Shown here: piece after piece, positions 1,122 to 18,567 of the stretch | How positions within the stretch are numbered: the stretch's first letter is position 1 | Layout of the letters: every line of letters begins with the position of its first letter | NCBI GenBank assembly: GCA_964647905.1 | Contig: CAZYJR010000030.1 | Span: forward strand, 5,042-37,041 | Reading direction: 5' to 3' | From: an uncultured Desulfobacterales bacterium | GTDB taxonomy: Bacteria; Desulfobacterota; DSM-4660; Desulfatiglandales; HGW-15 | DNA length: 32,000 bases | Notes under the pieces: generated by a model | What the model was told of the DNA's origin: nothing | Databases searched by the model: none | The model's input: the letters and a program-made list of their open reading frames with translations, nothing else | Position numbers and translations under genes: made by a program

Positions 1122-1214
1122 TTTTCACCTCGCATACGCCTCATTGGTTGAGCAGCACGGCTGTCTAGTAAAATGTTGGCCAGGAGACGGGCGTCCCGTC
1201 CCCTAGCCCCCCTT

Positions 1215-3808: not shown

Positions 3809-4405
3809 TTAGCTTGAAAAAAAGGGGATGCGCTTGTAATTAAACATAACAGCCAAAAGCTTTGCCTTCTTCTCTCCTATACTTCTCCCACTATGAGGAA
3901 CAGAAGCATCAAAATATACACAATCTCCTTCTTCCATGACGTATTTCTGGCCGTCATAAATTAGTTCATGCTTTCCTTCAAGAACAAACATGAATTCTTC
4001 ACCATCATGTTGAAAAATGGCTTCTTCGTCGAAGGAAGGTTCAATAATATACGGCTCCATGTTCTTCCCAGGCTTGTCAGCCGCCAGGGCTTCATACGCA
4101 TATCTGAAAAGCGACCCTTCTGAAAGTGAACCAATACTTCGGATCGGCTTTCCTTGGTGTCGCTTTGTTAATGATATTCGGACATCCTTTGAATCTTGGG
4201 GGTCTTCATGCAGCAGGTACGCGGCATCCACTCCCAAGGCCAAAGCAATTCGGTTTAGGGTCGAGTATGGAGGGGCTTTCTTGGCCCTTTCGATCTTCGA
4301 AAGATACCCCTTGGTAAGACCAGTCAGCTCGGCCAGCTTCTCCAGCGTCACTTTTTTCTCTTTGCGCAGCATCTTGATATTGTTGCAGATCAGCTCTTCA
4401 TCCAT
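3809..4405 (-). CDS. XRE-family regulator with C-terminal cupin domain
   Basis: N-terminal HTH IKMLRKEKKVTLEKLAELTGLTKGYLSKIERAKKAPPYSTLNRIALALGV; C-terminal cupin HDGEEFMFVLEGKHELIYDGQKYVMEEGDCVYFDASVPHSG. Confidence 0.9.
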   Translation of the reverse strand: MDEELICNNIKMLRKEKKVTLEKLAELTGLTKGYLSKIERAKKAPPYSTLNRIALALGVDAAYLLHEDPQDSKDVRISLTKRHQGKPIRSIGSLSEGSLFRYAYEALAADKPGKNMEPYIIEPSFDEEAIFQHDGEEFMFVLEGKHELIYDGQKYVMEEGDCVYFDASVPHSGRSIGEKKAKLLAVMFNYKRIPFFSS

Positions 4406-4673
4406 TGAGCGCGGCTACTCCATTAATGTTCGGTTGCGCTTGTCGGCCCATGCAATCGCGGGGGCAGTGAATGTTTCCTGTTTGGATACGTATAGCGAAA
4501 CCTGTTTCGGCTCCCACGAACTGATATCCCGCTTTTCATGAGGTTCTTCGAGGAAAATTAATCAAAGTTTGACCAGAAGTTTCCATTCTGTCAACAAAAA
4601 AATCAGGCAAAGGCGGGCTTCGTCTTTCTGCTTGGTGTACAGACCATCAGGGAGGATCGAGGGGCGGGGAGAG

Positions 4674-4707
4674 CAAGGGGGCGGGGCTTTGCAGCCCAGC
4701 CCCCTTG
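4674..4707 (-). terminator. Strong hairpin just downstream of the end of the long minus-strand operon
   Basis: CAAGGGGGC-G-GGGCT-TTGC-AGCCC-A-GCCCCCTTG: 9+5 bp stem with one mismatch, 4-nt loop; no clear U tract. Confidence 0.5.
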
Positions 4708-4726
4708 GTTCGGACGGATTCGGTGG

Positions 4727-7090
4727 CTACTTCTTTTCCGGCTTGCCCCGGTTCTTGATGGCGGTGTAGACCCGCTCAGGGGTGAGCGGGAGCTCGTGGA
4801 TGCGGACGCCCACTGCGTCGTAGACCGCGTTTAGGATCGCCGGGATGGTGGGCATGATCGCCCCCTCCCCGACCTCCTTGGCCCCGAAGGGGCCGTTGGG
4901 CTCGTTGCTCTCCACTATGATGGCCTCGACGTTGGGCATGTCCAGGGCGGTGGGGATCTTGTACTCCCCCAGGTTGGCGTTCAGTATCCGCCCCTTGTCG
5001 TCGAACTTGACCTCCTCCATGAGGGCCTCGCCCAGGCCCATGGAAAGGGACCCCTGCATCTGGCCCTCGACCGAAGTCACATTGATGGCGAAGCCGCAAT
5101 CGTGGGCGTCGGTCATACGCTCCACCCTGACCTTGCCGGTCCCCGGGTCCACGCTCACCTCCACCACCTGGGCGCTGGGCCCGTAGGCCGGGGAAGTACC
5201 CACCGCGGCTCCCTTGAACTTGCCGCCGAGTTCGCCGGGCTTGTATTTGCCCGTGCCCACTATGGTCCCCCGCTCCAGGTAGGCGATGCGCGCGGCCTCC
5301 TTGAAGCTAAGGGCCTCTTCCTCGGGCGGGTTGTCAGTGAACCCACGGTGTTCCTTGATGTAGCGGTTCCTGACCGGGCCGAAGTCCGGGTTCTCGCCCC
5401 TGAAGGTGATATAGCCCTCCTTTACGTCCATATCGGACACAGGGACCTTGAGCTGCTCTCCCAGGACCTCCAGGACTTGCTGTTTGACCGATTCCGCGGC
5501 TTCCTTTGCAGCGTGGCCGGTCATCAGGGTCTGCCTGCTGGAGTAGGCGCCCAAGTCCACGCCGTGCTCCGTGTCCCCGGAGCTCACCCGGATGTGATCC
5601 AGCGTGACTCCCAAGCCCTCGGCCGCGATCATGGCAAGAGCGGTGTCCGAGCCCTGGCCTATCTCCGCCGACCCTGTGAGCAGGTGGGCGGTGCCCCCGT
5701 CTTCGCTCAGCTTGAGCACCACCGTGGAGTGGGCCGTATCCGAGCGGTATATGGGGTACCCGGCCCCGGAGACGAAGAATCCGCAGGCCACCCCGATGCC
5801 GCGGTGCTCGCCTGTCTTGCCCTTTAGGTTTTTCCAATCCGAGTCCTTGTAAACCGCCTCCAGGCATTCCTTCATGCCGAAGCTGCTGACATTGAGGTCG
5901 TTGCAGGTAATGTCGCCCGCGCTCATGGCGTTCTTGAGCCTGAGCTCCAGCGGGTCGATGCCCAGCTCCTCGGCTATCATGTCCAGTTGCTGCTCCCAGG
6001 CGGCCCTGGCGGCCACCCCGCCGTGGCCTCTCTGGGCCCCGCAGGCTGGCTTGTTGGTGTAGATGCGCCACCCGTCGAACTTCATGTTGGGCAGCCTGTA
6101 CGGCGCGGCCAGCAAGGAGCCCGCGTAGTACACCGTGGCTATGCCGAAGCTGGTGTAAGCGCCGCCGTCCATGTAGCACTCGTTGGTAAGGGCCATCAGG
6201 GTGCCGTCCTTCTTGACCCCGGTTGTCAGGGTGTGCTTGAACTGGTGCCGGGCCCTGGAGAAGAAGAACACCTGCTCGCGGGTGTAGTTCATCTTGACCG
6301 GCCTGCCTGTCTTCATGGAGAGCAGGCAGGAGGCGATCTCCATGGTGTTGGTGCCGGCCTTGGGTCCGAAGCCTCCCCCCACGTAAGGCTTCTTTACGCG
6401 CACCTTTCCGATGGGAACGCCCAGGACCATGGCCACTATCCTCTGCACGTAGTGGGGGACCTGGGTGGATGAGTACAGGGTCAGGAAGCCGTTTCGGTCA
6501 TAGTCCCCTATGCAGGCCTGGGGCTCGAGGAAGGCGCCGTCCTGGCGCTTGTTCAGGAAGGTGTCGGTCCGGATCAGGTCGCAGTCCTTGAAGGCCGCCT
6601 CCACGTCGCCGAACTCCTGGTGGACCTCGCCGCAGATGTTCCCCGGGTATTTGTCGTGGAGCTGGGGGGCTCCCTCGGCCATGGCGTCTTCAACGGTCAG
6701 GAGGGGAGGAAGCTCCTCGTAGTCCACCTTGATCAAGGAAACCGCCTCGATAGCGGTTTCCAGGTCCACGGCCGCCACCGCGGCCACGTCGTCGCCCACG
6801 TGCCGGACGCGGTCGTGGCAGAAGACGTTCTCATCGTAGCGGGCCGGGCTTACCCCGTACTTTATGAAGCCCGCGTCCTCGGCCGTAACCACTGCCTTGA
6901 CCCCCGGGAGCCTCCGGGCCGCCGAGGTGTCGATATTCAATATCCTGCCGTGTGCGATGGGGCTCTGGAGGAGTGCACCGTAGAGCATCCCGGGCAGGGT
7001 CATGTCGTCGATATAGGTGGCGCGGCCCGTGGCCTTGTCAGGTGTGTCCAGCCTGGGGGCCCGCCTGTTTATGACACTGTAAGAGGCCAT
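4727..7090 (-). CDS. Xanthine dehydrogenase family molybdopterin-binding subunit; 4-hydroxybenzoyl-CoA reductase alpha-like
   Basis: 787 aa; RLDTPDKATGRATYIDDM, GGGFGPKAG, GSAEIGQGSDTALAMIAAEGLG, VGEGAIMPTIPAILNAVYDAVGVRIHELPLTPERV. Confidence 0.92.
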   Translation of the reverse strand: MASYSVINRRAPRLDTPDKATGRATYIDDMTLPGMLYGALLQSPIAHGRILNIDTSAARRLPGVKAVVTAEDAGFIKYGVSPARYDENVFCHDRVRHVGDDVAAVAAVDLETAIEAVSLIKVDYEELPPLLTVEDAMAEGAPQLHDKYPGNICGEVHQEFGDVEAAFKDCDLIRTDTFLNKRQDGAFLEPQACIGDYDRNGFLTLYSSTQVPHYVQRIVAMVLGVPIGKVRVKKPYVGGGFGPKAGTNTMEIASCLLSMKTGRPVKMNYTREQVFFFSRARHQFKHTLTTGVKKDGTLMALTNECYMDGGAYTSFGIATVYYAGSLLAAPYRLPNMKFDGWRIYTNKPACGAQRGHGGVAARAAWEQQLDMIAEELGIDPLELRLKNAMSAGDITCNDLNVSSFGMKECLEAVYKDSDWKNLKGKTGEHRGIGVACGFFVSGAGYPIYRSDTAHSTVVLKLSEDGGTAHLLTGSAEIGQGSDTALAMIAAEGLGVTLDHIRVSSGDTEHGVDLGAYSSRQTLMTGHAAKEAAESVKQQVLEVLGEQLKVPVSDMDVKEGYITFRGENPDFGPVRNRYIKEHRGFTDNPPEEEALSFKEAARIAYLERGTIVGTGKYKPGELGGKFKGAAVGTSPAYGPSAQVVEVSVDPGTGKVRVERMTDAHDCGFAINVTSVEGQMQGSLSMGLGEALMEEVKFDDKGRILNANLGEYKIPTALDMPNVEAIIVESNEPNGPFGAKEVGEGAIMPTIPAILNAVYDAVGVRIHELPLTPERVYTAIKNRGKPEKK

Positions 7091-7162
7091 CTCGTTCCTC
7101 CTTGTCTGCTGTTCTCTTGCTTCTTATGTACGTTCTAGTGAAGCCTCCGCGTGAGGGGTTGC

Positions 7163-7633
7163 TCATCCCCTCATGGACCGGCCTGCGGCCTGAATGGCCT
7201 CAACGATCTTTTGATAGCCGGTGCACCGGCAGAGGTTGCCGGATATGGCGGTGCGGATCTCGCCCTCGTCAGGCTCCGGGTGGCGGTCCAGGAGGCTCTT
7301 TCCGCTCAAGAGCATCCCCGGGGTGCAGAACCCGCATTGAATGGCCCCGTGTTCCACAAAGGCGGCCTGCAAGGGGTGCAGGCCCTCGTCGGTCTCCAGC
7401 CCCTCGACCGTTGTCACCTCCCTGCCCGCCGCCTGTACGGCCAGGACCAGGCAGGAGTTCACCGGTTTGCCGTCCAAGAGAACCGTGCAGGAGCCGCAAT
7501 CGCCCACCTCGCATCCCTTTTTGGTACCCGTCAGCCCCATGTCATAGCGGAGCATGTCGGCCAGGGTGCGGTTGGGCGCAACAGCGATCTCTTCGGCCCG
7601 GCCGTTGACGGTGGTCTGAATAAGCTTCTTCAT
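7163..7633 (-). CDS. (2Fe-2S)-binding subunit of xanthine-oxidase-family enzyme (hydroxybenzoyl-CoA reductase gamma-like); the ORF extends to 7678 but MKKLIQ at 7633 follows a GGAGG site
   Basis: GCEVGDCGSCTVLLDGKPVNSC and QCGFCTPGMLL...GNLCRCTGYQKI motifs. Confidence 0.93.
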   Translation of the reverse strand: MKKLIQTTVNGRAEEIAVAPNRTLADMLRYDMGLTGTKKGCEVGDCGSCTVLLDGKPVNSCLVLAVQAAGREVTTVEGLETDEGLHPLQAAFVEHGAIQCGFCTPGMLLSGKSLLDRHPEPDEGEIRTAISGNLCRCTGYQKIVEAIQAAGRSMRG

Positions 7634-7674
7634 CTTGTTCCTCCGGTAAGAAAAGCCCGCTCTCGAGCCAGTGT

Positions 7675-8541
7675 TCATCCGATCCTTTGGAGTGCGCTCT
7701 CCAGGGTCCTCCTGGTGAGCACCGCCACCATGTCGCGCCTGTAGGCGGCGGAGGCCCTGAAGTCGTCTATGGGGCGTGCGTCTTGGGCCGCCGCCCGCGC
7801 CGCCTCCTCAAAGAGGGCCTCGCTGGGCCTCTCCCCCCTGAGGACATCCTCGGCGGAGCGGGCCCGGATGGGCGTGGGCGCCACGGCGCCCAGGACGATT
7901 CTTGCGCTGTTTATGGTATCCCCGTTCATGCCGATGTAGGAGGCCACGTTCACGATTGATATCTCCAGGGTCTCCCGTATGCCGAGCTTCAGGTAGGCCC
8001 CTCCGTGGCGCTCCGAGTCCGGGGTGATCCGAATGGATGACAGGATCTCCTCCTGTCCCATGACCGTGGAGCCGGGACCCTCGAAGAATTCCTCCAGTGG
8101 AACGCTTCTTGACCCCGCGGGGCCGCTCAGGGCCACCGCGGCCCCGTAGGCCATGAGAGGGGGGGGCAGGTCAGCGGCGGGTCTTGCCGATACCAGGTTG
8201 CCGGCCGCAGTGGCCAGGTTCCTTATGAGGGGGCTCCCGAGTCTCGAGGCCCCCTCGGCCAGGGCGGGAAACCGCTCTCTCACCAGGGGGGAGTCGGCCA
8301 GCTCGGCCGCTGTTATGCAACCGCCGAGCTCCAGTCCGCCGCCGGCGTCTTCGATTCGGCGGAGCTCCTCCAGCCTGGTGAGTCCGATCAGGTGATCGGC
8401 CTCCATCACCTTCTTTTTCAAGTTAACGATAAGGTCAGTCCCGCCGGCAAGCGGCCTGGCCTTTTCTCCCAGTTCGCCCAAGAGGCGGCAGGCCTCCTCC
8501 AGGCTCTTGGGCTCGTGGTAATCGAACCGGGGTAAAAGCAT
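7675..8541 (-). CDS. FAD-binding subunit of xanthine-oxidase-family enzyme (CoxM/HcrB-like)
   Basis: 288 aa; PLAGGTDLIVNLKKK, GSPLIRNLATAAGNLVSARPAADLPPPLMAY. Confidence 0.9.
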   Translation of the reverse strand: MLLPRFDYHEPKSLEEACRLLGELGEKARPLAGGTDLIVNLKKKVMEADHLIGLTRLEELRRIEDAGGGLELGGCITAAELADSPLVRERFPALAEGASRLGSPLIRNLATAAGNLVSARPAADLPPPLMAYGAAVALSGPAGSRSVPLEEFFEGPGSTVMGQEEILSSIRITPDSERHGGAYLKLGIRETLEISIVNVASYIGMNGDTINSARIVLGAVAPTPIRARSAEDVLRGERPSEALFEEAARAAAQDARPIDDFRASAAYRRDMVAVLTRRTLESALQRIG

Positions 8542-8603
8542 GGGTTCCTCCTATTCTCTTTCATATCCGATTGGAGCGGCCGTGGAGGCCGCAGTCTTGC
8601 GGG

Positions 8604-9167
8604 CTAGTCACCCCAGCGCTTGAAGAGCCGGTGTTCTATCCCTAGGTAATCAAAGACCTTGCCTATGGTCTGGTCCAGTATGTCCTCGATTGTGCTGGGC
8701 CTGTGATAAAACGACGGCACAGGGGGGAGGATATGCGCCCCCAGCTCCGCGGCCAGGCTCATCAGGCGGAGGTGCCCGGCGTGGAGAGGGGTCTCTCTGA
8801 CCACCAGGACCAGCTTTCTCTTCTCCTTGAGCGTCACGTCTGCAGCCCGGATGAGCAGGTTGGTGGTGAAGGAGTTGGATATGCCGGAGAGACTCTTTAT
8901 GGTGCAGGGGGCCACCACCATGCCCTCGGTCATGAACGACCCGCTTGCAAGGGCTGCACCCACGTCCCGGTTGTCATAGACCACCGCGGCCATCCCGGCC
9001 ACCTCCTCCGGGCTGTACCGGGTCTCGATCTCGATGTTCCGCTTCCCGGCCTCGGAAAGGATCAAGTGGGTCTCCACATCGGTCTCTTTCAAATGCTCCA
9101 GGAGCCTCACTCCGTATATCACCCCGCTCGCCCCGGATATCCCCACCACCAGCCTTCGCGCCATCAC
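8604..9167 (-). CDS. ubiX: UbiX-family flavin prenyltransferase
   Basis: RLVVGISGASGVIYGVRLLEHL; VVAPCTIKSLSGISNSFTTNLLIRAADVTLKEKRKLVLVVRETPLHAGHLRLMSLAAELGAHILPPVPSFY. Confidence 0.95.
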   Translation of the reverse strand: MMARRLVVGISGASGVIYGVRLLEHLKETDVETHLILSEAGKRNIEIETRYSPEEVAGMAAVVYDNRDVGAALASGSFMTEGMVVAPCTIKSLSGISNSFTTNLLIRAADVTLKEKRKLVLVVRETPLHAGHLRLMSLAAELGAHILPPVPSFYHRPSTIEDILDQTIGKVFDYLGIEHRLFKRWGD

Positions 9168-9179
9168 TTATTCCACCCT

Positions 9180-9830
9180 TCATCCATTGCGCCGCACCAC
9201 CTCCAGTATGTTGAATCCTCGCTCCTTGAGCGTCTCGTTCACCCGTTCCAGGCCTTCCTTGTCCAGGCGCAAAAGCAGCCGCCGCTTCCCGGTCTCGGGG
9301 TCCTTAAGGGTGAAGAGGCAATGAAGCCTCCCGCCTGCGGCGAATGCCGCCTCCACTATCTCCCGCACCATCTCCCCGTCGGGCCGATCGAGCTCCACTG
9401 TCAGCCCGGAGTAGCTCTCCGCCACACCCAGTATCTGGTAGAGGGAGTTGAATATGTCGAGATCCGAGACCGTCCCGACCAGCTTTTCCCCGTCCATGAC
9501 CGGGAAGAAGCTCCTGCCGAACTGCTTGCCCTGCTCCAGTGCGGCCTCCACGGTATCGTCCATGGAGAGGCAGACCGGCTTCCTGACCATCAGGTCCTTC
9601 ACCTTGACCCGCTCGTTGAAGAACTTCATCTCGTGGGGACTTTGCGTGGCCGTGACCGACGATGCCGCCTCGTTCAAGTCCTTGCGGGAGAGGATACCCC
9701 TGAGCCTGCCCTCGTCAACCACCGGGATGAACCTCTCCCTGATCTCGCCCAGGATCCGCAGGGCCTCGCTGGCCGGGGTGTCGCTGGTAATGGTGGCCGG
9801 GGACTTCTTCATCCAGTTCTTTATGAGCAT
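9180..9830 (-). CDS. Two-CBS-domain protein, phenylphosphate synthase gamma-like; true start probably MLIKNWMKKSP at 9830 (ORF open to 10100)
   Basis: 216 aa from MLIKNWMKKSPATITSDTPASEALRIL...VKDLMVRKPVCLSMDDTVEAAL...FFPVMDGEKLVGTVSDLDIF. The upstream extension is low-complexity Arg-rich and overlaps the next gene. Confidence 0.85.
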   Translation of the reverse strand: MLIKNWMKKSPATITSDTPASEALRILGEIRERFIPVVDEGRLRGILSRKDLNEAASSVTATQSPHEMKFFNERVKVKDLMVRKPVCLSMDDTVEAALEQGKQFGRSFFPVMDGEKLVGTVSDLDIFNSLYQILGVAESYSGLTVELDRPDGEMVREIVEAAFAAGGRLHCLFTLKDPETGKRRLLLRLDKEGLERVNETLKERGFNILEVVRRNG

Positions 9831-9895
9831 GGCGTTCTCCGTGAAATGAGGATTATGCCAGAAAACATTTCTCCGGGTAAAGCACTTCGGGGCTG

Positions 9896-11134
9896 TTATC
9901 CGGTGTCTTCCGCGGCCTTTGCTCCGAAGAGCTCCATGGCCGCGCTGATCACGGCCTCTCCGAAGGCCGGATCCTCCATGTTGGCGTCCACTTCCGAGAC
10001 CTTGATCTCCGGCCTCAGTAGGGCGCGAAGCTCGTTTACAAAGATCCGGTCCTCTGCGGGGTCGTGGGTGGGGTTGCCGGGCGCGTCCACGGACGACCAT
10101 CCCCTCGTGGGGATCACCACCCTCACCGGGCCCTTCGCCCTATTGAGCTTGTCCGCGAATACGGCGGCCACCTCTGAGAGCTCCTCGGGCGAGTGGCGGA
10201 TCCAGGTGCGGTAACGGTCCAGGTCGTACTTTCGCCGCTCCTTGTACTCCGGCTTGTACCTGGACTTGGCCGGCGTCATGTGATTCACGCTGCAGACGGA
10301 CACCACCTGGGGGATGCCCAGGCTCCCTGCGGTCTCCAGCCTGTTGGGGCCCGCGTCCCTCATGAATCCGTAGTGGTGCTCTCCCACACCTCCAGGGGCG
10401 AGATCCACCACCCCGTGGAAGAGGCCCTGGGCTATCATGTCCTCCATGGCCCTGTCCCCGATCCCTGCAGCGGAAAACCCTATCACTTGGAATCCTTGTG
10501 CTTCCAGGCCTTGCCGAACCGAGCTCGCGCATTTCTCGCACGGCCCCAACATGGTGAGCGCTATGCTTCGACCGGATTCGGAGCCGGGAGGGGCCGCCCG
10601 GCCTCTTATCATGCCCGCCGCCGCTCCCGCGCCCCGGTCGAGGACGTTTTTCAGCAGATCGGTCACCCCGGAGATCTCTATTACCGAGTGGAACAGGGCT
10701 ATGTCCCCGGTCCCTATGTACCGCGTGGAGAGGCCGGGGAGGGCGGCGGTCGATGAGATCATGAGCTTGGGGACCCCGAAGGGAAGGGCTCGCATCACCT
10801 CGGTGGCCATCAGGGTGCCCGTGGAGCCGCCCAGGCCCACCGCGCCGTGGATCCCGCCCTCGGCTTGGAGCCGCTTGGCAATGGCAGAGGCCCCTTGGAT
10901 GGTGATGTTGGTGATCCGCGAGCGCTCCCTGGAGGAGTGGATCTCCTCCAGGGAGCTCCCGCCGGCCGATGCCACCTCGGCCGGTCCCACGTCGGCCGAG
11001 GGATGCCCGTCCCCCCGCATGGAGAGGTCCATCAAGAGAGTCCCCAGGCCCAACGCCTCCAACCTCTCCCTGAGATACATGGTCTCCGGGCCCTTGGTGT
11101 CCATGGTGGAAAGGATCAGGACCGTATGCTCCAT
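9896..11134 (-). CDS. Tm-1-like ATP-binding domain protein (UPF0261 family), copy 1
   Basis: MEHTVLILSTMDTKGPETMYLRERLEALGLGTLLMDLSMRG; GAVGLGGSTGTLMATEVMRALPFGVPKLMISSTAAL; VIPTRGWSSVDAPG. Confidence 0.88.
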   Translation of the reverse strand: MEHTVLILSTMDTKGPETMYLRERLEALGLGTLLMDLSMRGDGHPSADVGPAEVASAGGSSLEEIHSSRERSRITNITIQGASAIAKRLQAEGGIHGAVGLGGSTGTLMATEVMRALPFGVPKLMISSTAALPGLSTRYIGTGDIALFHSVIEISGVTDLLKNVLDRGAGAAAGMIRGRAAPPGSESGRSIALTMLGPCEKCASSVRQGLEAQGFQVIGFSAAGIGDRAMEDMIAQGLFHGVVDLAPGGVGEHHYGFMRDAGPNRLETAGSLGIPQVVSVCSVNHMTPAKSRYKPEYKERRKYDLDRYRTWIRHSPEELSEVAAVFADKLNRAKGPVRVVIPTRGWSSVDAPGNPTHDPAEDRIFVNELRALLRPEIKVSEVDANMEDPAFGEAVISAAMELFGAKAAEDTG

Positions 11135-11163
11135 TAGTCGGTGCTCCCTTCGGCTTTGCTCCC

Positions 11164-12819
11164 TCAGGATTGCTCGGCCTCTATCTTGGCCGCCATTTCC
11201 TTCTTGAGCGTCTCCTTGTTCACCTTGCCCGAGTCGCCCACGGCCGGGAACTCGTCCATTATCTCCAGGCGCTCCGGGAGCTTGAACTTGGCGAGCTTCT
11301 TGGCCTTGAGGAACTCCACCATCTCATCGAAGGTGAAGGTCTCCCCGGCCCTGGGGATCACACAGGCGCAGCACCGTTCGCCCATCTCCCTGTCCGGGTA
11401 GCCCACTATGGCCACTGACGAGACCTTGGGGTGCTCGTTCAGGAGCCCCTCTATCTCCGCGGGGTATATGTTCTGACCGCCCCGAATGATCATGTCCTTG
11501 GCCCGGCCCAGGATCCAGAGGCAGCCCTGGTCGAACTTGACGATATCCTCGGTGGTGGTCCAACCGTCGCTGTCGAACACCGTCGCGGTAAGCTCCTCGT
11601 CGCGGTAATAGCCGGCCGGTGCATGGGGCCCCCTGAAGTAGAGAATCCCCGGCTCCCCGTCAGGGACCGTATCGCCCTTTTCGTCGACCAGCCTCACCTT
11701 GTTCCCAGGGAGCATGCGGCCCACGGTTCTGCGGCGCAGCTCCTTGCTGTCCTCCACCCGGCATCCCGAGACCGAGCCCTTGTCCTGTGTGCCCAGGTCG
11801 CTGGTGATCACCGCCTGGAAGGCCTCCTCTGCCTCTTCGGCCACCTGGGGGGAGAGATAGCCGCCCGCCGAGCGGATGAAGCGGAGCGAGCTCAGGTCGT
11901 ACCTGGAGGGATCCGCTTCCAGCATCCTTATCAAGTGGGTCGGCACCACTCCGATGGCGGTCGCCCGCTCCTTTTCGATCAGGGAAAGCGCCCCTTCAGG
12001 GGTGAATTCCTCGAGCATCACGGTCTTGGCCCCGGCAAGGGGGGCGGCGAAGTAGGTAAGGGTGCCGGCGGCTCCGCCCGCATGGGGTGCGATCGCCATG
12101 GTGATGTCGTCCTTGTTCAGGCCCCAGATGTCCACCCTGGCCTTGGACGTGCAGACCCTGGGCGCGGTCGGCCATTCCACCAGCTTGGGAAGGCCCGTGG
12201 TGCCGCTGGTGGTGGTGAGCAGGGCGACGTTCCAGATGGCATCCAGCCTGCGCTCCGCCAGCACGGCCTCGTCCACCGGCTCGGCTGCGCGCTCATGGGC
12301 CATGGTGGTCAGGGAGTGGGTCCCCTCGGGCGCTCCTTGCGGCACCTTGTCATCGAAGAGAAAGATCCTTTCCAGATGGGAGAAGCGCTCCTGGAGCTCG
12401 CGGTACATCTCCAGGTAGTCGAACTTGCGGTATACATGTGGGATGACTACGGCTGAGGCCTCCGTCCTTTCCACCATGTACTCGAGCTCCCGCTCGCGCA
12501 GGTAGGGATAGACCGTGAGGGAGATCAGCCCGGCCCTCTCGGCCGCCACACGGGCCAGGAACCCGAAGACGCTGTTCGGCGACTGGATGATGATTCGGCT
12601 GAACTTGGGAAGGCCCATCTCCACCCAGGAGGCGGCAATGGCGTCCACCAGGCGTTTGGCCTCGGCCCAGGTGACCCTGTAGCGGGAGTCCACCAGGGCC
12701 TCGCGGTCGCCCATCTCCCGGGCGTTCCGGTCATAGAAGTCGTAGAAGAGCTCCTGGGTCCAGTGTCCGTCCCGGACGAACTCATCGACCATCTCCTGGG
12801 TATAGCGAATCGGTCTCAC
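11164..12819 (-). CDS. AMP-dependent aryl/acyl-CoA ligase (2,3-dihydroxybenzoate-AMP ligase/benzoate-CoA ligase type)
   Basis: 551 aa; LLTTTSGTTGLPKLVEW, DGWTTTEDIVKFDQGCLWILGRAKDMIIRGGQNIYPAEIEGLL, GKVNKETLKK. Confidence 0.92.
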   Translation of the reverse strand: MRPIRYTQEMVDEFVRDGHWTQELFYDFYDRNAREMGDREALVDSRYRVTWAEAKRLVDAIAASWVEMGLPKFSRIIIQSPNSVFGFLARVAAERAGLISLTVYPYLRERELEYMVERTEASAVVIPHVYRKFDYLEMYRELQERFSHLERIFLFDDKVPQGAPEGTHSLTTMAHERAAEPVDEAVLAERRLDAIWNVALLTTTSGTTGLPKLVEWPTAPRVCTSKARVDIWGLNKDDITMAIAPHAGGAAGTLTYFAAPLAGAKTVMLEEFTPEGALSLIEKERATAIGVVPTHLIRMLEADPSRYDLSSLRFIRSAGGYLSPQVAEEAEEAFQAVITSDLGTQDKGSVSGCRVEDSKELRRRTVGRMLPGNKVRLVDEKGDTVPDGEPGILYFRGPHAPAGYYRDEELTATVFDSDGWTTTEDIVKFDQGCLWILGRAKDMIIRGGQNIYPAEIEGLLNEHPKVSSVAIVGYPDREMGERCCACVIPRAGETFTFDEMVEFLKAKKLAKFKLPERLEIMDEFPAVGDSGKVNKETLKKEMAAKIEAEQS

Positions 12820-12842
12820 ATCGAACCTCCGTGCTTGAAAAG

Positions 12843-12871
12843 CCGCCGCCCGGCGGCAAACCGGGCGGCGG
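12843..12871 (-). terminator. Terminator-like hairpin between the ubiD-like and ligase genes (possible attenuator/processing element)
   Basis: CCGCCGCCCGG-CGGCAAA-CCGGGCGGCGG: perfect 11-bp arms, 7-nt loop; on the minus strand followed by CTTTTC. Confidence 0.5.
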
Positions 12872-12880
12872 TCTAAAGGT

Positions 12881-14281
12881 TTAGAGCCCCAGCTCGGACC
12901 ACCTGGACTCCACTTTCTTCACCATGTCCGGGTCCAGCTCGATGGGAATGGGCTTCTTCTTCCACTCGTATGGAATGGTGGCGTCCATCAGCATGCGGCC
13001 GGTAATCTCCCGCGCGTCAATGGGCAGGGAAGGGTCGAGAGGGGTGGAGCGCCCGCGCTTTATCACCTGGCTGCGGTTCGGCTGGAACCGGAAGCTCAGG
13101 GCGTACATCACCCGGGGGATGTCCCACGGGTCTATGTCGTCGTCGACCGCAATCACGGTTTTAAGTCCGTAGGCGCCCATCTCCGTGGAGACGGCCGCGG
13201 TGAGCACCTGGTCCGTATGGCCCGGGTACATCTGCTTGAGCGAGATGATTGCCAGGAACCGGCCGGATCCCTCGGGCGGGCAGTAGACCGCCTGTATGCC
13301 CGGGATCTTCATGTCTTCCAGTTGCTGCCACAGGGTGGCCCCGTAGGTGAGGGCCATGGTCATGTGGGTGTCGGTAACCGCCCTTCCCACGGTGGTTCCC
13401 CAGAAGATGGGGTTGTTCCTGTAGGTGACGCATTTTACATCTATAAAGTTCCTGGGGTCGGTGCCCACGCCCGAGTAGTAGCCGGTGTACTCGCCGAACG
13501 GGCCCTCCTCCATGAACTTGTCCGCGTCCACCTCGCCCTCGACCACGATCTCGGCCGTGGCCGGGACCGGAAGATCGTTGGTCTCCGCCTTTACCACCTC
13601 GATGGGCCCCCCGCGAATGGTGCCTGCAAAGTCATACTCCGACTCGAACGCGGAGAGTCTGGAGGCCCCCATGAGAAAGAGCAGGGGATCGCAGCCCACC
13701 ACCGCGCAGACCGGCATGGGTTTGCCCATGGCCTGGTATTTCTTGAGCATGATATCCGCGTGCTTGCCCTTGATGAACTGGGTCCCCAGCTTGTCCTTTC
13801 CCAGGAGCTGGAGCCGGTAGGTCCCGAGATTGACCCAGCCGGTCTCCGGGTCCTTGCTCAGGACGAAGTGGGCCGTACCGAAGTACCTCCCCCCGTCCAT
13901 CGGGTAGAACTTGGGCACCGGAAACTTGTTGAGGTCCACCTGGTCGCCCATCATGATGTTTTCCTTGCAGGGCCCGGTGTCCACCATCTTGGGAGGGATC
14001 ATGGTCTCCCGCTTTTCCACCCACATCCTCATCAGGTCCACCAGGCTGGAGTCCTCGGGCATGCCCATGATCAGGGCCAGCCTGGCCGTGGAGGTGCAGA
14101 CACTGGTTATCACCGGCGAGTCGTAGCCTTTGACATTCTCGAAGAGCAGGGCCGGTCCCTGCCTCTCCTCGTTGATCTTTGCAATGTGGGAGAGCTCCAG
14201 GTCCCAGTCCACCTCCGCCTTGATGCGGTGGAGCATGCCCCTCTTTTCCGCCTCGTCAATGAAATCCCTCATGCTCTTCAT
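12881..14281 (-). CDS. ubiD: UbiD-family (de)carboxylase, candidate phenylphosphate carboxylase-type subunit
   Basis: 466 aa; MRDFIDEAEKRGMLHRI, GPALLFENVKGYDSPVI, EGPFGEYTGYYSG, NPIFWGTTVGR, STPLDPSL. Confidence 0.92.
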   Translation of the reverse strand: MKSMRDFIDEAEKRGMLHRIKAEVDWDLELSHIAKINEERQGPALLFENVKGYDSPVITSVCTSTARLALIMGMPEDSSLVDLMRMWVEKRETMIPPKMVDTGPCKENIMMGDQVDLNKFPVPKFYPMDGGRYFGTAHFVLSKDPETGWVNLGTYRLQLLGKDKLGTQFIKGKHADIMLKKYQAMGKPMPVCAVVGCDPLLFLMGASRLSAFESEYDFAGTIRGGPIEVVKAETNDLPVPATAEIVVEGEVDADKFMEEGPFGEYTGYYSGVGTDPRNFIDVKCVTYRNNPIFWGTTVGRAVTDTHMTMALTYGATLWQQLEDMKIPGIQAVYCPPEGSGRFLAIISLKQMYPGHTDQVLTAAVSTEMGAYGLKTVIAVDDDIDPWDIPRVMYALSFRFQPNRSQVIKRGRSTPLDPSLPIDAREITGRMLMDATIPYEWKKKPIPIELDPDMVKKVESRWSELGL

Positions 14282-14329
14282 AAACCCTTCTCCCTCCCTT
14301 TTTGAATTCTGTTTAACAATGGTTGCCCC

Positions 14330-15412
14330 TTATTTGATCTTCTTGCCGCTGACCAGCCCTGCCACAATGTGCTCAAGGGCGGATTTCTTTGGTTTGGATA
14401 CGGGCTCCCTCTGCCTGTGGCCCCAGACCGTCTCGGGCCGGCTCTGGAGGATCAAGACCCTGCCTGCAGCCGGCATGTCCTTGTCTATGGCCCACTCGAT
14501 GTCCATGGGTTTTCCGTAGTGCTTCTCTATGAGCTTGCCCACCCGGGCGAGCTCCACCACGTCCTCGTCGATCATGCACTGGTTGTTTCGCCTCTCCTGT
14601 GGGATCTCGTGCCTCTCCACCTCGTTGGTCTCCGGGTTGGCCGTGTACAGGCACTCCTTGGGTGAGATCTTGCGCTTTATTATCTCCAGGGTGACCTTGC
14701 TGACCACGAAGTGGTCCGGGGTGCACTCGCCGCTCACCACGCTCTCGCCGAACCCCCAGTTGGCGTCTATCACTATGGTGGAGGGGTCCCCGGTGGCGGG
14801 ATTGATGGTGAACATCACCCCCGCGGTCCAGGAGTTGGCCATCTTCTGGATGCCCACCGAGATGCCCACCGCATCGTGGGGGAAACCCATTCGCGCCCGG
14901 TAGGCGATGGCCCGGGGAGTGAACAGGCTGGACCAGCATTTGCGAACGTGCTCCAGGACGTTGTCCACCCCCCTGACCCACAGGAAGGTCTCCTGCTGGC
15001 CGGCGAAGCTCGCATCCGGCAGGTCCTCGGCCGTGGCGCTGGATCTCACCGCCACGGGTACGGCGGGGACGTGGCACTGCTCGGAGAGCCTCCTGTAGAA
15101 CTCCCCTATGTAGTCCTCTATCTCTATACTGACCGGCGCCCCCTCTATGAGCTCCCTCACCTCCCTGCTCGCCTTCTCTCCCGTATTTGTGTCCTCCGCC
15201 CTGACTCCTCCCAGGATCCTGTTGATCTCCTCGCGGATGCCGGTTTCCTTCAGGAACCTGTAGTAGGTCTCGGTGGTGACGGCGAACCCCGGGGGGACGG
15301 GGATGCCGGCCTTGAGGAGCTCTCCCAGGCTGGCGTTCTTCCCTCCCACCCGCGGGACGTCGTTCATGTCGCATTCCTGGAACCAGAGCACGTAATTCAT
15401 GCGCTCTTTCAT
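14330..15412 (-). CDS. PEP-synthase N-terminal-type ATP-binding protein; phenylphosphate synthase beta-like
   Basis: 360 aa stand-alone ATP-grasp half: VGGKNASLGELLKAGIPVPPGFAVTTETYYRFL, VAVRSSATAEDLPDASFAGQQETFLWV, DIEWAIDKD...VLILQSRPETVWG; no phospho-His domain. Confidence 0.92.
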   Translation of the reverse strand: MKERMNYVLWFQECDMNDVPRVGGKNASLGELLKAGIPVPPGFAVTTETYYRFLKETGIREEINRILGGVRAEDTNTGEKASREVRELIEGAPVSIEIEDYIGEFYRRLSEQCHVPAVPVAVRSSATAEDLPDASFAGQQETFLWVRGVDNVLEHVRKCWSSLFTPRAIAYRARMGFPHDAVGISVGIQKMANSWTAGVMFTINPATGDPSTIVIDANWGFGESVVSGECTPDHFVVSKVTLEIIKRKISPKECLYTANPETNEVERHEIPQERRNNQCMIDEDVVELARVGKLIEKHYGKPMDIEWAIDKDMPAAGRVLILQSRPETVWGHRQREPVSKPKKSALEHIVAGLVSGKKIK

Positions 15413-15418
15413 TGGATA

Positions 15419-17257
15419 CTACCTCTCGATCTGTACATGGCCGGTGTTGCCGTCCACCTTGATATGCATGCCCGTCTTGATGATCGAGGTGGCGTGGCCC
15501 GTCCCCACCACCGCGGGCATACCGTACTCGCGGCACACAATGGCCGCATGGCACATGATGCCGCCCACATCGGTGACAGCGGCCCTGATCTTCTGGAAGG
15601 CGGGCGCCCATGACGGCGACGTGGTGGGCGCCACCAGGATCTCGCCGTCCTTTAGCTGATCCACTTCCTTTACGGACCTGCACACCCTGGCCACGCCTTC
15701 CACCGAGCCCGGGGAGCCCGCAAAGCCGGTGAGCTCGGTGACCTTGTCCGGGTCTCCGATCTCCCGGACCTTGGCCCAGGCGGACATGCTCTCGTTGGTG
15801 ACCCCCCAGAGGACTATGGTGAAAGGCTCGGTTATGGTTTCCGGAGGGGTCCCTACGGCTGGCGGCGGTGACCATTGCCTGAACTTCTCGTAGACGCCCT
15901 TGCGCCACTCGATCTCCTTGGGCCAGTAAGAGGGCCCCCTTGGCTTGCTCCCGGTCGCCCAGGCGGTCACAACGTCCCACAAGGCGTCCTTGATTTCCGA
16001 GCGCTTGAAGAACCAGACGTCCTCTATGTCCTTGATGAACTCAAAGTCCTTGAGGATCGCTGCCACCTCCCTGACCTTGTTCCAGAAAATGGAGTGGAAC
16101 CAGTGCTCCACGTAAAAGAGGTGGTTCTCCACGTAGGGGAAGACCAGCTCGGAGGTCCCCTGGAGCTGGTCGAATGTCTGCTTGTCCTCCTCGGTCGAGA
16201 GCAGCTCCCTGTACTCCTTCCGTATCCTCTCCCGCTCCTCCTTGATCCTTTCCACCGGCCGATCTATGGACTGGCCCTGCTGTATTTTTTCCACGTAGAC
16301 CCGAATGGAGTTCATGGGGACGTTGAGTTCGTCCAGCCAGCAGGCGTCATGGTGGTACCACCCCGTCCCTGTGGAGACATAGAACCACGGGTTCTTCGCC
16401 TTTTCCCACGCCTGCACCCAGGTCCTGCCGTTATCCGACTTTTCCAGGTCCGCCAGGGTGTCCCGGACGTCGCGGCTCTCCAGGATCTTTCCCGCCAGGT
16501 CCAGGTCCACGGCGAGGCGGGCGAGCTTCTTCAGCTCCTCGTCCGGCTGGTAGATGATCACATCGATTCCGCCCACCATCTGGGTGATGCGCTGGAGCGG
16601 GATATCCGGGAAGGCCTTGGTGCAGAAGTCGACAAAGGTGACATAAGACGCATAGCCCAGGTTCAGGAACTCGAAGTGGTACTGCCAGCAGAGGATACCC
16701 ATGTCCAGGAGCTTGTCGTAGGCCCGGAGGAGCTCGTAGCCCTTGGACTTGCCCAGTCCTTCGGTAACCACGGACATGTCCTCCATCTCGGGCAGGCGGG
16801 GGATCTCCAGGGCTTCGAGCTCCTTGATCAGCTCCTTCATCTTTTCTTCCCACTTGTCGTGGAGCTCGTCCCAGTGCTCGTAATAGTAACCCGCACGCTC
16901 CATGAAAAGCGGCACCCGCTCTTCCACCTGCTTGGGATCGGAGACAGGGACTGGGGTGATGTAGACGTTTCCGTTGATGATGCGGTGATCCACGCCCAGG
17001 GCCGGCGGGACCATGAAGATCCTGGTATTGAACTGGCTCAGCGCCAGGAACCAGGCCTCGTCCCAGATGATGTCGAACGGATACATGGGCTCCGGGTAAT
17101 GGAGGCCGTCATTGAACCAGAACATGTTGTTCTCGTACTCTTCGCGCTCCTTGTCCTCTGTGGTGAACTGGTAGTGGTAGGGGTACATCCTCTCCCACCC
17201 CTCGGTCCCCGGGATGGTCTCCACCTCGTGAGGGTTGGGAAACTTGGGCTCGGCCAT
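15419..17257 (-). CDS. PEP-utilizing mobile-domain protein; phenylphosphate synthase alpha-like (copy 1)
   Basis: Start MAEPKFPNPHEVETIPGTEGWERMYPYHYQF at 17257 behind GGAGG. C-terminal phospho-His motif GGIMCHAAIVCREYGMPAVVGTG, His570 codon at 15548..15550; 612 aa. Confidence 0.9.
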   Translation of the reverse strand: MAEPKFPNPHEVETIPGTEGWERMYPYHYQFTTEDKEREEYENNMFWFNDGLHYPEPMYPFDIIWDEAWFLALSQFNTRIFMVPPALGVDHRIINGNVYITPVPVSDPKQVEERVPLFMERAGYYYEHWDELHDKWEEKMKELIKELEALEIPRLPEMEDMSVVTEGLGKSKGYELLRAYDKLLDMGILCWQYHFEFLNLGYASYVTFVDFCTKAFPDIPLQRITQMVGGIDVIIYQPDEELKKLARLAVDLDLAGKILESRDVRDTLADLEKSDNGRTWVQAWEKAKNPWFYVSTGTGWYHHDACWLDELNVPMNSIRVYVEKIQQGQSIDRPVERIKEERERIRKEYRELLSTEEDKQTFDQLQGTSELVFPYVENHLFYVEHWFHSIFWNKVREVAAILKDFEFIKDIEDVWFFKRSEIKDALWDVVTAWATGSKPRGPSYWPKEIEWRKGVYEKFRQWSPPPAVGTPPETITEPFTIVLWGVTNESMSAWAKVREIGDPDKVTELTGFAGSPGSVEGVARVCRSVKEVDQLKDGEILVAPTTSPSWAPAFQKIRAAVTDVGGIMCHAAIVCREYGMPAVVGTGHATSIIKTGMHIKVDGNTGHVQIER

Positions 17258-17516: not shown

Positions 17517-17540
17517 ATGGATAAATTTTATGTTATCCAT
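17517..17540. promoter_or_regulatory. Inverted repeat (8-bp perfect arms, 8-nt spacer) upstream of the LysR gene; candidate autoregulatory/LTTR site
   Basis: ATGGATAA-ATTTTATG-TTATCCAT in the divergent intergenic region, 67 bp before the LysR ATG. Confidence 0.5.
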
Positions 17541-17607
17541 AAACGCAGGTTATGGCTGACTCCTGAGGATAAGATCTCTTTCCGGGCATCTGCCCGCCCG
17601 CAAGGCC

Positions 17608-18567
17608 ATGCTCAACTTCAACCAACTGCGCATCTTCTATTTCGCCGCCAAGCACCTCAGCTTCACAGAGGCTGCGCGGCGTCTCTTCATAACCCAGCCT
17701 GCAGTGACCGCTCAGATAAAGCACCTGGAAGAGCACTGCAATCTCAAGCTCTTCAGGAAGAGGGGCCGCAGGGTCTGCCTTACCGAGCCGGGGGAGGCGC
17801 TCTTCGAGTACGTCAAAAGGGTCTTCGAGTACGAGCGGGAGATCGAGGACGCGATCGAGGAGCTGCGGGAGCTCAAGCGCGGGGCCCTCAAGATAGGCAC
17901 CACCAAGACCTACGCCCGGCACTTCATGCCTCTCCTGATCACCGCGTTCCACGAGGCCCATCCCGGGATCCGCATCCACCTGGATGAAGGGAGCTCCCTG
18001 GACATGATCCGAAGTCTTTTGGAGCTCAGGAACGAGGTGGCGGTGATCGCGCAGGCCGGCGGGGACCACCCGGATGTCCTTTTCACGCCCTTCAGTCACG
18101 AGGAGATGGTGGTGATCCTTGCCCCCGGCGACCCCCTGGCTCGCCGCCGGCGCCTTTCCCCTGCCGAGGTCGCAGCCCGGCCTATCATCATGAAGGAGGC
18201 CGGTTCAGGGACCCGAAAGGTGGTTAACGAGCTCTTCGAGAAAGCGGATTTGGCCCCCGAGGTCCTCATGGAGACCAGCAACACGGAGTTCATCAAGCAG
18301 TTGGTGATGCGCGGGGAGGGGGTCTCCATCCTGGTGAGGGAGGCGGTGGCCCAGGAGCTCAGGGAAGGCAAGCTGGCCTCGGCCGCCATAAAGGGCCCCG
18401 AGATTTTCCTGGATGTGAGCATCGCTCACCTGAGGGACCAGCACTTCTCCCCCCCGGCCCGCGCCTTCCTGGACATACTGGCAAGACTCAAGCCCGCAGG
18501 CTCGTCCAATGTGGGCATCGGCGCCCTTATGGCCCGCATCCTCGCAGGCAACCGCCGCACCGCCTGA
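17608..18567 (+). CDS. LysR-family transcriptional regulator (copy 1), divergent from the aromatic operon
   Basis: MLNFNQLRIFYFAAKHLSFTEAARRLFITQPAVTAQIKHLEEHCNLKLFRKRGRRVCLTEPGEAL, typical LysR HTH; substrate-binding domain follows. Confidence 0.95.
   Translation: MLNFNQLRIFYFAAKHLSFTEAARRLFITQPAVTAQIKHLEEHCNLKLFRKRGRRVCLTEPGEALFEYVKRVFEYEREIEDAIEELRELKRGALKIGTTKTYARHFMPLLITAFHEAHPGIRIHLDEGSSLDMIRSLLELRNEVAVIAQAGGDHPDVLFTPFSHEEMVVILAPGDPLARRRRLSPAEVAARPIIMKEAGSGTRKVVNELFEKADLAPEVLMETSNTEFIKQLVMRGEGVSILVREAVAQELREGKLASAAIKGPEIFLDVSIAHLRDQHFSPPARAFLDILARLKPAGSSNVGIGALMARILAGNRRTA

Follow-up and report, generated by a model that had tools for sequence, protein, structure and literature searches.

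Anaerobic phenol degradation in Thauera aromatica and Aromatoleum aromaticum involves a split dikinase (phenylphosphate synthase) with a phospho-His alpha, an ATP-grasp beta and a CBS-type gamma subunit, a UbiD-type carboxylase with a UbiX-like gene, a CoA ligase, a dehydroxylase of the xanthine-oxidase family (4-hydroxybenzoyl-CoA reductase, 4-HBCR; HcrABC) and the sigma54-dependent regulator PheR. The three subunits of the Thauera phenylphosphate synthase have masses of 70, 40 and 24 kDa, and the carboxylase comprises two UbiD-type subunits (alpha, PpcA; beta, PpcB), a small gamma subunit (PpcC) and a HAD-phosphatase-like delta subunit (PpcD). For the strict anaerobes Geobacter metallireducens, Desulfatiglans anilini and Desulfotomaculum gibsoniae, published descriptions give ppcB only; the phenol-induced G. 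metallireducens locus (Gmet_2100-2102), as described in other papers, contains ppsA, ppsB and only a ppcB homologue. The phe cluster of D. anilini DSM 4660 (H567DRAFT_02049-02059) is phenol-induced (Xie & Muller 2018; Xie et al. 2020). Here we describe a stretch of 32,000 nucleotides (the window) from an uncultured, sulfate-reducer-like Desulfobacterales bacterium (GCA_964647905.1, contig CAZYJR010000030.1, positions 5,042 to 37,041), which carries on its minus strand, at 4727-17257, a ten-gene operon that is a further example of the gene set described in D. anilini and common in related bacteria.

The ten co-directional genes were recovered, from the open reading frame (ORF) list and translations, at the coordinates of an earlier reading of the letters alone (the original prediction). 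The intergenic gaps, in the order ppsA to hcrA, are 6 (ppsA to ppsB), 48, 61, 29, 65, 12, 62, -4 and 72 nt, so no gap has room for an extra gene. Protein families were assigned with Pfam and NCBIfam models, with bit scores compared to curated cutoffs, and the families originally named for the ten proteins stood. We consider it probable that the ten genes form a catabolic operon under LysR control, of the strict-anaerobe type, with phenol or a near phenolic relative as its substrate; the four-step chemistry set out below is likely, and for phenol itself as the substrate the evidence is evenly poised.

From the domain content, motifs, synteny, operator and family affinities observed, we infer the following catalytic steps and substrate. 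PpsA and PpsB, probably assisted by the CBS protein, would phosphorylate the phenolic hydroxyl at the expense of ATP via phospho-His570, yielding the aryl phosphate, AMP and phosphate. The PpcB-type UbiD enzyme, with prenylated FMN provided through UbiX, would carboxylate the ring para to the oxygen with release of phosphate to give 4-hydroxybenzoate, the 551-aa AMP-forming ligase would convert this to 4-hydroxybenzoyl-CoA, and the three-subunit molybdenum enzyme would reductively remove the 4-hydroxyl to leave benzoyl-CoA. The UPF0261 protein would be a conserved fifth component, most likely ATP-binding, that performs or aids a phosphoryl transfer foreign to the Thauera paradigm.

This phenol-type route is supported by the occurrence of the same families, at nearly the same sizes, in the phenol-induced phe cluster of D. 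anilini. The corresponding proteins of D. anilini and of the window are Pps-alpha (615 and 612 aa), Pps-beta (358 and 360 aa), Ppc-beta (about 52 kDa and 466 aa), UPF0261 (403 and 412 aa), ligase (552 and 551 aa), HcrA (783 and 787 aa), a 'CODH medium' subunit (293 and 288 aa; CODH, carbon monoxide dehydrogenase) and a 'CODH small' subunit (154 and 156-171 aa), with a UbiX-like protein in both. Both clusters lack PpcA, PpcC and PpcD, and both have a PaaK-type ligase nearby. They differ in gene order and in that D. anilini has a receiver protein (175 aa) but no CBS protein, whereas the window has a CBS protein but no receiver; furthermore, PpsAB of the window belong to another subtype. A search of the D. 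anilini genome with ORFs of the Thauera phenol cluster appears not to have picked up 02057 (UPF0261) and 02058 (ligase).

The link to D. anilini is drawn through family, size and induction data and through two operons from Desulfatiglandales metagenome-assembled genomes (MAGs; L086 and L087). The gene order in L086 and L087 is LysR<>PpsA-PpsB-UbiD-RR-ligase-UPF0261-UbiX-HcrB-HcrC-HcrA, and their gene content is exactly that of the D. anilini phe cluster, including a 175-aa receiver-domain protein (between the UbiD and ligase genes) and the missing CBS gene. Their proteins are identical to those of the window at 76% (UbiD), 86% (ligase), 74% (UPF0261), 85% (UbiX), 65% (HcrB), 79% (HcrC) and 84% (HcrA), and, over full length, at 44% (PpsA) and 49% (PpsB). 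The originally proposed sequence of phosphorylation, carboxylation, ligation and dehydroxylation was thus largely borne out, by the families and sizes in D. anilini and by the synteny at 65-86% identity for seven proteins. For wider comparison, 3639 PpsA relatives with E <= 1e-20 were found among the candidates scored, and the related loci discussed here are the best 80 of 498 PpsA-matching stretches, with one genome per bacterial or archaeal species (67-79% PpsA identity). Neither D. anilini nor G. metallireducens is among these best 80 loci, all of which have at least 67% PpsA identity, and no HcrA or UPF0261 match fitted the lengths and molecular weights in the D. anilini proteome table.

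For the dikinase, PpsA scored 1041 bits against NF006152 (cutoff 723). Its sole Pfam domain is the C-terminal swivel domain of phosphoenolpyruvate (PEP) utilizers, with a phospho-His candidate at His570 in the motif GGIMCHAAIV (position 569 in Thauera, 571 in D. anilini), and it aligns to the catalytic-His domain of rifampin phosphotransferase and PEP synthase entries; for the N-terminal ~500 aa no sequence homologue was found in the PDB. PpsB (PPDK_N, E=2.4e-121) corresponds to no more than the N-terminal ~365 positions of PEP synthase models, and in the PDB it matches a stand-alone 387-aa ATP-grasp chain (9goj_A, 300 bits). The two proteins therefore have the features of the alpha subunit (612 aa, C-terminal swivel domain with His570) and the beta subunit (a separate 360-aa protein with the ATP-grasp domain only) of phenylphosphate synthase. 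The gamma subunit has a counterpart, by architecture alone, in the 216-aa CBS-pair protein of the same operon, which is a candidate stimulatory or regulatory subunit. Elsewhere in the window lies the gene for an orphan paralogue of PpsA (613 aa, 58% identity to PpsA of the operon, 873 bits against NF006152) with no adjoining PpsB, in tail-to-tail arrangement with a second LysR gene whose product is 50% identical to the first; the paralogue may represent a second substrate specificity for the dikinase.

The main rival reading, an unlikely one, is that the operon performs the same chemistry on an arylamine or on another para-unsubstituted phenolic, such as hydroquinone, catechol or o- or m-cresol, leading to substituted 4-hydroxy- or 4-aminobenzoyl-CoA that is then dehydroxylated or deaminated. 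The PpsA of the window belongs to NF006152 and that of the Desulfatiglandales operons to NF006153, in line with the low identity of PpsAB given above; the orphan PpsA paralogue and the occurrence of at least two UbiD/ligase subtypes (~80% and ~52% identity) among related modules also favour this reading. The phenol enzymes of Thauera reportedly also convert catechol, and D. anilini has a parallel ani cluster for aniline (Pas-alpha/beta, Ppc-beta, UPF0261, acyl-CoA synthetase, HCR-like). An aniline system of this Pas type was largely rejected, however, because the phospho-His of Pas-alpha is at position 512, compared to 569-571 in Pps-alpha (His570 of 612 aa in the window), and because Pas-alpha is only ~27% identical to Pps-alpha. 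Moreover, UbiD, ligase, UPF0261, UbiX and Hcr proteins of the window group with operons of D. anilini phe composition, and a common substrate such as phenol would fit the very wide distribution of the module across sediments, peat and groundwater.

Among family members with a solved structure or a model, the 4-HBCR alpha subunit is the closest to the large subunit of the molybdenum enzyme, with about twice the similarity of any other: the large subunit scored 920.9 bits against TIGR03194 (cutoff 994.55; next best family 604) and 599 bits against 1rm6_A (next PDB entry 311), with 43% identity to Thauera HcrA and 84-85% to HcrA of the Desulfatiglandales operons. The small subunit contains eight Cys residues and has the two [2Fe-2S] clusters of the gamma subunit (TIGR03193, 190 bits; cutoff 258). 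An identification as Thauera-type 4-HBCR, as in the original prediction, thus holds for the xanthine-oxidase-family trio as such, with an alpha subunit that groups with HcrA and a gamma subunit with two [2Fe-2S] clusters, but not for the FAD subunit. In Thauera, the beta subunit carries an extra [4Fe-4S] cluster on a ~40-residue loop (Unciuleac et al. 2004). The FAD subunit of the window has 288 aa (324 aa in Thauera), its best PDB match is CutM (1ffv_C, full length), and it scored 141.8 against TIGR03195 (cutoff 404.55) in two stretches; it aligns to 1rm6_B with a ~38-residue offset (123-281 to 161-318), skips ~38-45 residues of 1rm6_B/TIGR03195, and has two Cys residues in total. With the loop skipped and only two Cys, it cannot carry the extra [4Fe-4S] cluster that defines the Thauera enzyme. 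All related Hcr sets have a short FAD subunit (289-305 aa; 293 aa in both Desulfonema magnum and D. anilini); it is a lineage-wide variant and not a defect.

It is very unlikely that this enzyme oxidises or hydroxylates another aromatic or heterocyclic compound, or has a CO-related role, and that dehydroxylation takes place elsewhere. A CO-related role was considered by the D. anilini authors (Xie & Muller), the FAD subunit is CO-dehydrogenase-like over its full length and free of the [4Fe-4S] loop, all three subunits score under the curated 4-HBCR cutoffs, and the Hcr trio follows the module in only six of the 56 full-length loci and stands alone in Desulfonema magnum. The twofold closer relation of the large subunit to 4-HBCR alpha outweighs these points, as do the phenol induction of HcrA (783 aa) and of the 293-aa medium subunit in D. 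anilini, and the requirement for such an enzyme in any phenol pathway that reaches 4-hydroxybenzoyl-CoA. Aromatic dehydroxylases of the xanthine-oxidase family without the [4Fe-4S] domain are known, e.g. the urolithin dehydroxylase Ucd. A CO dehydrogenase identity was rejected: the active-site motif CSFR is absent from the large subunit, which is much closer to HcrA. The best reading, from sequence relationships, is a putative dehydroxylase whose electron donor is probably different from that in Thauera. The stand-alone operon of Desulfonema magnum (L085; CP061800.1, 7160550-7182910) comprises HcrB (293 aa), HcrC and HcrA (786 aa, 75% identical to HcrA of the window), with no pps/ppc genes nearby; the loop-less reductase is therefore an independent, mobile unit in Desulfobacterota.

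For the carboxylase, the UbiD protein scored above the cutoff for the phenylphosphate carboxylase beta subunit (TIGR02724, 527; cutoff 469) and below the cutoffs for the alpha subunit (TIGR02723, 215 vs 565) and for VdcC (340 vs 650); it shares 75-84% identity with most orthologues. Its sequence shows the motifs NLGTYR and EEGPFGEYTGY, which from the Fdc1/UbiD literature we take to be the catalytic Arg and the Glu...Glu pair. UbiX (NF004685, 261.5 bits, cutoff 188; TIGR00421, 237.8) is predicted by family to supply the prenylated FMN cofactor to the UbiD enzyme. A reversed role of UbiD/UbiX, as a decarboxylase of 4-hydroxybenzoate to phenol in a non-carboxylating cluster, is hardly credible, since, although UbiD enzymes can work in either direction and, outside the Ppc models, those for hydroxyarylic acid decarboxylases come nearest (VdcC, 340 bits), the score is over the PpcB cutoff and well under that for VdcC, a VdcD-like small subunit gene is absent, and tight linkage in one operon to genes for an aryl dikinase, for a CoA ligase and for a dehydroxylase makes sense only in the carboxylating direction.

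There is one UbiD gene in the 32-kb window, of the beta type, as originally stated, and the two-UbiD arrangement of Thauera (alpha and beta) is not found within the window. PpcC and PpcD are likewise absent, with gaps of at most 72 nt and no HAD protein among the scanned window ORFs. The single PpcB-type UbiD gene near ppsAB, the presence of a UbiX gene and the absence of ppcA, ppcC and ppcD correspond to the strict-anaerobe type, and the original expectation that the window holds the whole route went too far in this respect. In D. anilini, a second UbiD-like protein encoded away from the cluster is phenol-induced, two UbiD subunits are required in vitro for the aniline system, and no expression of a PpcD-like phosphatase was seen.

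In other related loci, accessory genes are found beside the module. These are a HAD-type hydrolase (e.g. L023, L030, L008), which is a generic phosphoglycolate-phosphatase-like hydrolase and not a PpcD homologue, though possibly a functional analogue of PpcD; a PF21758 PAC_bac protein (L006, L015, L018, L074), which may be an LpdD-like chaperone for prenyl-FMN; a flavin-binding, PNPOx-like protein encoded between UbiX and PpsA (L044-L072); and a Nudix hydrolase (L017, L019) and an isopentenyl diphosphate (IPP) isomerase (L023, L032), possibly for supply of the prenyl donor to UbiX. No homologue of the HAD, PAC_bac/LpdD-like, PNPOx-like, Nudix and IPP-isomerase families of these loci was found in the window by tblastn.

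Several observations weigh against a phenol operon of the proposed kind. PpsA and PpsB of the window share no more than 44% and 49% identity with the D. anilini-like versions of the Desulfatiglandales operons, and the phenol role of the operon and of its PpsAB type is a prediction from sequence. HcrA scores slightly under the curated 4-HBCR cutoff, the FAD subunit is without the [4Fe-4S] loop, and the 551-aa ligase scores above the cutoff for no characterised aryl-CoA ligase model. PpcA, PpcC and PpcD are absent from the operon. In G. metallireducens, phenylphosphate carboxylase activity reportedly went undetected. Extracts of D. anilini gave no detectable phenylphosphate carboxylase activity either (Xie & Muller 2018; Xie et al. 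2020), and for this reason, together with the missing subunits, carboxylation by this UbiD type is a proposal.

The 551-aa ligase is proposed to be a 4-hydroxybenzoate-CoA ligase. It is below the cutoff of every NCBIfam equivalog, and it is like D. anilini H567DRAFT_02058 (annotated as '2,3-dihydroxybenzoate-AMP ligase', 552 aa) in family annotation and size; the latter is strongly phenol-induced, and its function is given as unknown by the authors (Xie & Muller 2018; Xie et al. 2020). The ligase and the UPF0261 gene are closely linked, with a median of 2 nt from ligase stop to UPF0261 start across related loci (29 nt in the window). The UPF0261 gene is a core conserved member of the module, usually translationally coupled to the ligase gene, and neither this Tm-1-like protein nor the ligase is the filler for which they had first been taken. 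In D. anilini, the UPF0261 protein (02057, 403 aa) was detected almost solely in phenol-grown cells, and was not discussed by its authors.

The first activity for a UPF0261 protein was that of MarK (Saro_1862) of Novosphingobium aromaticivorans, an ATP-dependent kinase of a phenolic hydroxyl (JBC 2025, PDB 9MPY). In the MarK pathway, phosphorylation is followed by carboxylation, and in other bacteria a PpsAB-like dikinase does the phosphorylation; His219 of MarK hydrogen-bonds the phenolic oxygen and His304 is involved in stacking (JBC 2025). The operon UPF0261 protein is a full-length homologue of this structure (E=3.6e-57) with both UPF0261 domains, the ATP-site Lys (MarK Lys16, Tm-1 Lys20) and the D-T-K motif, which includes the Lys whose introduction activates MarK and is kept in 50-52 of the 53 orthologues, and it likewise belongs to a pathway that would start with phosphorylation of a phenol and subsequent carboxylation. 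In contrast, the aromatic-pocket residues of MarK are not conserved in the operon copy, in which His219 is replaced by Ser, His304 by Asp (MAFFT alignment) or Leu (phmmer alignment), and His348 by Val; also, the protein accompanies a PpsAB dikinase instead of substituting for it. Ser219 is found in 50 of 53 orthologues, alongside the 551-aa ligase in 49 of these 50. Six distant in-module copies (~35% identical to that of the window) keep His219, and the five that could be scored are in modules without the 551-aa ligase.

A second UPF0261 copy in the window (404 aa, with 35% identity to that of the operon) retains His219 together with the D-(S/T)-K motif and has Tyr304 and Ala348. Its gene is followed after 3 nt by a gene for a 361-aa protein whose N-terminal part is Cys-rich and unassigned and which ends in a 2x[4Fe-4S] ferredoxin domain. 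Such His-type copies are found beside the LysR gene in 27 related loci, there without the Fe-S partner of the window copy.

The operon UPF0261 protein is predicted to act in an ATP-linked phosphoryl transfer whose substrate is not a free simple phenol. More tentatively, and at a fairly low probability, the strict-anaerobe module may be not merely a trimmed Thauera pathway, with UPF0261 as an essential catalytic component; this is suggested by the coupling to the ligase, the phenol-specific detection of 02057 in D. anilini, and the retention of the ATP site with a remodelled pocket. If so, one option is that UPF0261 replaces functions of PpcA, PpcC and PpcD by handling the aryl phosphate during carboxylation. 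In the other option, 4-hydroxybenzoate or its CoA ester would be phosphorylated by it on the 4-hydroxyl, so that the loop-less reductase would eliminate phosphate and not hydroxide. Either option, if true, would address the undetected carboxylase activity in extracts and the energetics of the pathway.

The gene order, which had been thought possibly distinctive, is the commonest among the 80 related loci (LysR<>PpsA-PpsB-UbiD-ligase-UPF0261-CBS-UbiX; tblastn and ORF analysis). These loci are almost all from Desulfobacterota, where the order recurs in dozens of species; it occurs in Desulfobacula, Desulfotignum, Syntrophobacteraceae, Desulfomonilaceae, Desulfarculaceae, Dethiosulfatarculus sandiegensis and a few Rhodospirillales MAGs, and the module itself is found very widely, in sediments, peat and groundwater. 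Among the 56 full-length loci (at least 7.5 kb downstream of PpsA), PpsB is encoded in 56, UbiD in 55, UPF0261 and UbiX in 53 each, the CBS protein in 49, the 551-aa ligase in 48, and the Hcr proteins in six; the directly attached reductase trio is the less common trait of the window operon.

The closest type for PpsA and PpsB of the window is that of Syntrophobacteraceae and Desulfobacula (77-79% and 70-76% identity, respectively), i.e. the CBS-accompanied type; for PpsA, PpsB and the CBS protein together, identities to this type (L006-L013) are 55-79%. The genes from ligase to HcrA, the CBS gene excepted, best match the Desulfatiglandales operons (65-86%), and UbiD matches both types about equally (75-83%). 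By these split affinities, the operon is a mosaic of modules from two lineages: it joins the dikinase module of one lineage to the carboxylase-ligase-UPF0261-UbiX-reductase module of another. In comparison to Thauera, the genes are all in one operon.

A divergent LysR gene is located upstream of the module in most related loci, as in the window, where the LysR-ppsA intergenic region comprises 350 nt. It contains the palindromes ATAACCTGCGTTTAT (17539-17553) and GGATAACATAAAATTTATCC (17519-17538), a TTGACA element (17511-17516), and a strong Shine-Dalgarno sequence, AAGGGAGG, just 5' of the ppsA ATG at 17257. A palindrome ATAA-N7-TTAT, mostly ATAAG-N5-CTTAT, is present in the window and, at the corresponding place between LysR gene and module, in 47 of 58 related loci (among L005-L084), at a chance expectation for eight fixed bases in ~300 nt of about 0.005-0.02 occurrences. 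Because the palindrome is so widely kept and rarely expected by chance, it is probably the conserved LysR-type operator of this module family, and the LysR protein the probable cognate regulator of the operon.

The original claim of one transcription unit is plausible, and co-transcription is predicted as the simplest reading, from the single upstream LysR/operator region, the strong Shine-Dalgarno sequence, the lack of terminators between the genes and a hairpin downstream of hcrA. This GC-rich hairpin (4674-4708) starts 19 nt past the last stop codon and is followed by a weaker hairpin and then a T7 run (4596-4602); the RNA fold of the 171-nt stretch 4560-4730 has -50.7 kcal/mol (z = -2.1). 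Terminator-like sites inside the cluster number 14 (11.1 +/- 3.8 expected in shuffled sequence) and are all intragenic; a split of the operon by internal terminators or promoters was rejected, as consensus matches are not above the shuffled level and all lie within genes. The CBS gene most likely starts at ATG 9830, since a longer ORF (to 10100) overlaps the preceding gene. No Rfam family and no tRNA was found in the whole window. The features are summarized in Table 1.

Table 1. Features of the window, with positions counted from its first letter.
Feature	Position	Strand	Families or basis
TRAP transporter DctP/DctQ	618..2228		
PaaK-like aryl-CoA ligase	2367..3698		
XRE-cupin regulator	3809..4405		
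Probable 3' end of the operon, hairpins	4596..4708	-	sequence and RNA fold
Molybdenum-cofactor large subunit (HcrA-like), 787 aa	4727..7090	-	TIGR03194, 1rm6_A
Small subunit, two [2Fe-2S], 171 aa (possibly 156 aa, internal Met)	7163..7678	-	PF01799 + PF00111
FAD-binding medium subunit, xanthine-oxidase family, CoxM/CutM-like, 288 aa	7675..8541	-	PF00941 FAD_binding_5 + PF03450 CO_deh_flav_C
UbiX flavin prenyltransferase, 187 aa	8604..9167	-	NF004685, TIGR00421
CBS-pair protein, PpsC-like candidate, 216 aa, ~24 kDa	9180..9830	-	PF00571, two stretches
UPF0261 (Tm-1-like, MarK-family) putative ATP-binding protein, 412 aa	9896..11134	-	PF06792 + PF23189
AMP-forming acyl/aryl-CoA ligase, 551 aa (alternative ATG start 12792)	11164..12819	-	PF00501 + PF13193
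PpcB-type UbiD-family (de)carboxylase, 466 aa	12881..14281	-	UbiD_N/UbiD/UbiD_C, TIGR02724
PpsB-like beta subunit, ATP-grasp half of PEP-synthase-type dikinase, 360 aa	14330..15412	-	PF01326 PPDK_N
PpsA-like alpha subunit, aryl (phenol-type) dikinase, 612 aa	15419..17257	-	PF00391, NF006152
Operator-like palindromes, LysR-ppsA intergenic region	17519..17553	.	sequence reading
LysR-family regulator, divergent	17608..18567	+	PF00126 + PF03466
Cysteinyl-tRNA-synthetase-like protein, 441 aa	18827..20152	+	
Fe-S protein, 361 aa	20127..21212	-	
Second UPF0261 copy, 404 aa	21216..22430	-	
AbiEii toxin gene	23091..23807		
Second LysR gene	24281..25219	+	
Orphan PpsA paralogue, 613 aa	25408..27249	-	NF006152
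DMSO-reductase-family molybdopterin oxidoreductase, two overlapping ORFs	27582..29851	-	
C-terminal part of this oxidoreductase	27582..29003	-	
N-terminal part of this oxidoreductase	28790..29851	-	
ORF matching A-adding tRNA nucleotidyltransferase	30507..31814	+	

The G+C content drops from ~63% to 44-52% right after the operon terminator (positions 1-4700 of the window). This low-GC block, with its TRAP transporter, XRE-cupin regulator and PaaK-like ligase (well under the PaaK cutoff), looks like an aromatic-acid uptake and activation unit and was possibly acquired separately. The drop at ~4.7 kb raised the question of an assembly chimera; the operon itself is colinear with the independent assemblies L001-L004, L086 and L087, so the finding is unaffected. 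A second low-GC patch (23000-24000) contains the AbiEii toxin gene.

The cysteinyl-tRNA-synthetase-like protein (269; CysS cutoff 340) is encoded just downstream of the first LysR gene on the same strand, and at its 3' end its gene shares 26 nt with the Fe-S protein gene, which runs towards it; no such gene was found near the module in other related loci. The molybdopterin oxidoreductase (Fdh-alpha/PhsA-like), directly upstream of the orphan PpsA paralogue, is split and represents either a frameshifted pseudogene or an assembly error. The ORF at 30507 matches only the N-terminal half (positions 1-427, DHH-DHHA1-CBS) of the 880-position model for A-adding tRNA nucleotidyltransferase and stops 186 nt short of the end of the window; another frameshift or a genuine truncation of the gene may account for this.

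The breakdown of tyrosine and of lignin commonly yields phenol, which is also a widespread pollutant, and phenol removal under anoxic conditions depends on this pathway. The window adds no new chemistry; the comparison sharpens the gap in the strict-anaerobe version of the pathway, which has one of the four carboxylase subunits of Thauera, lacks the extra Fe-S cluster of the reductase, and carries UPF0261 and, usually, a dedicated ligase. The residual interest lies in the UPF0261/ligase pair and in the reductase without the extra Fe-S cluster, and as the UPF0261 family has been known since 2025 to include aromatic kinases, this gap is directly testable.

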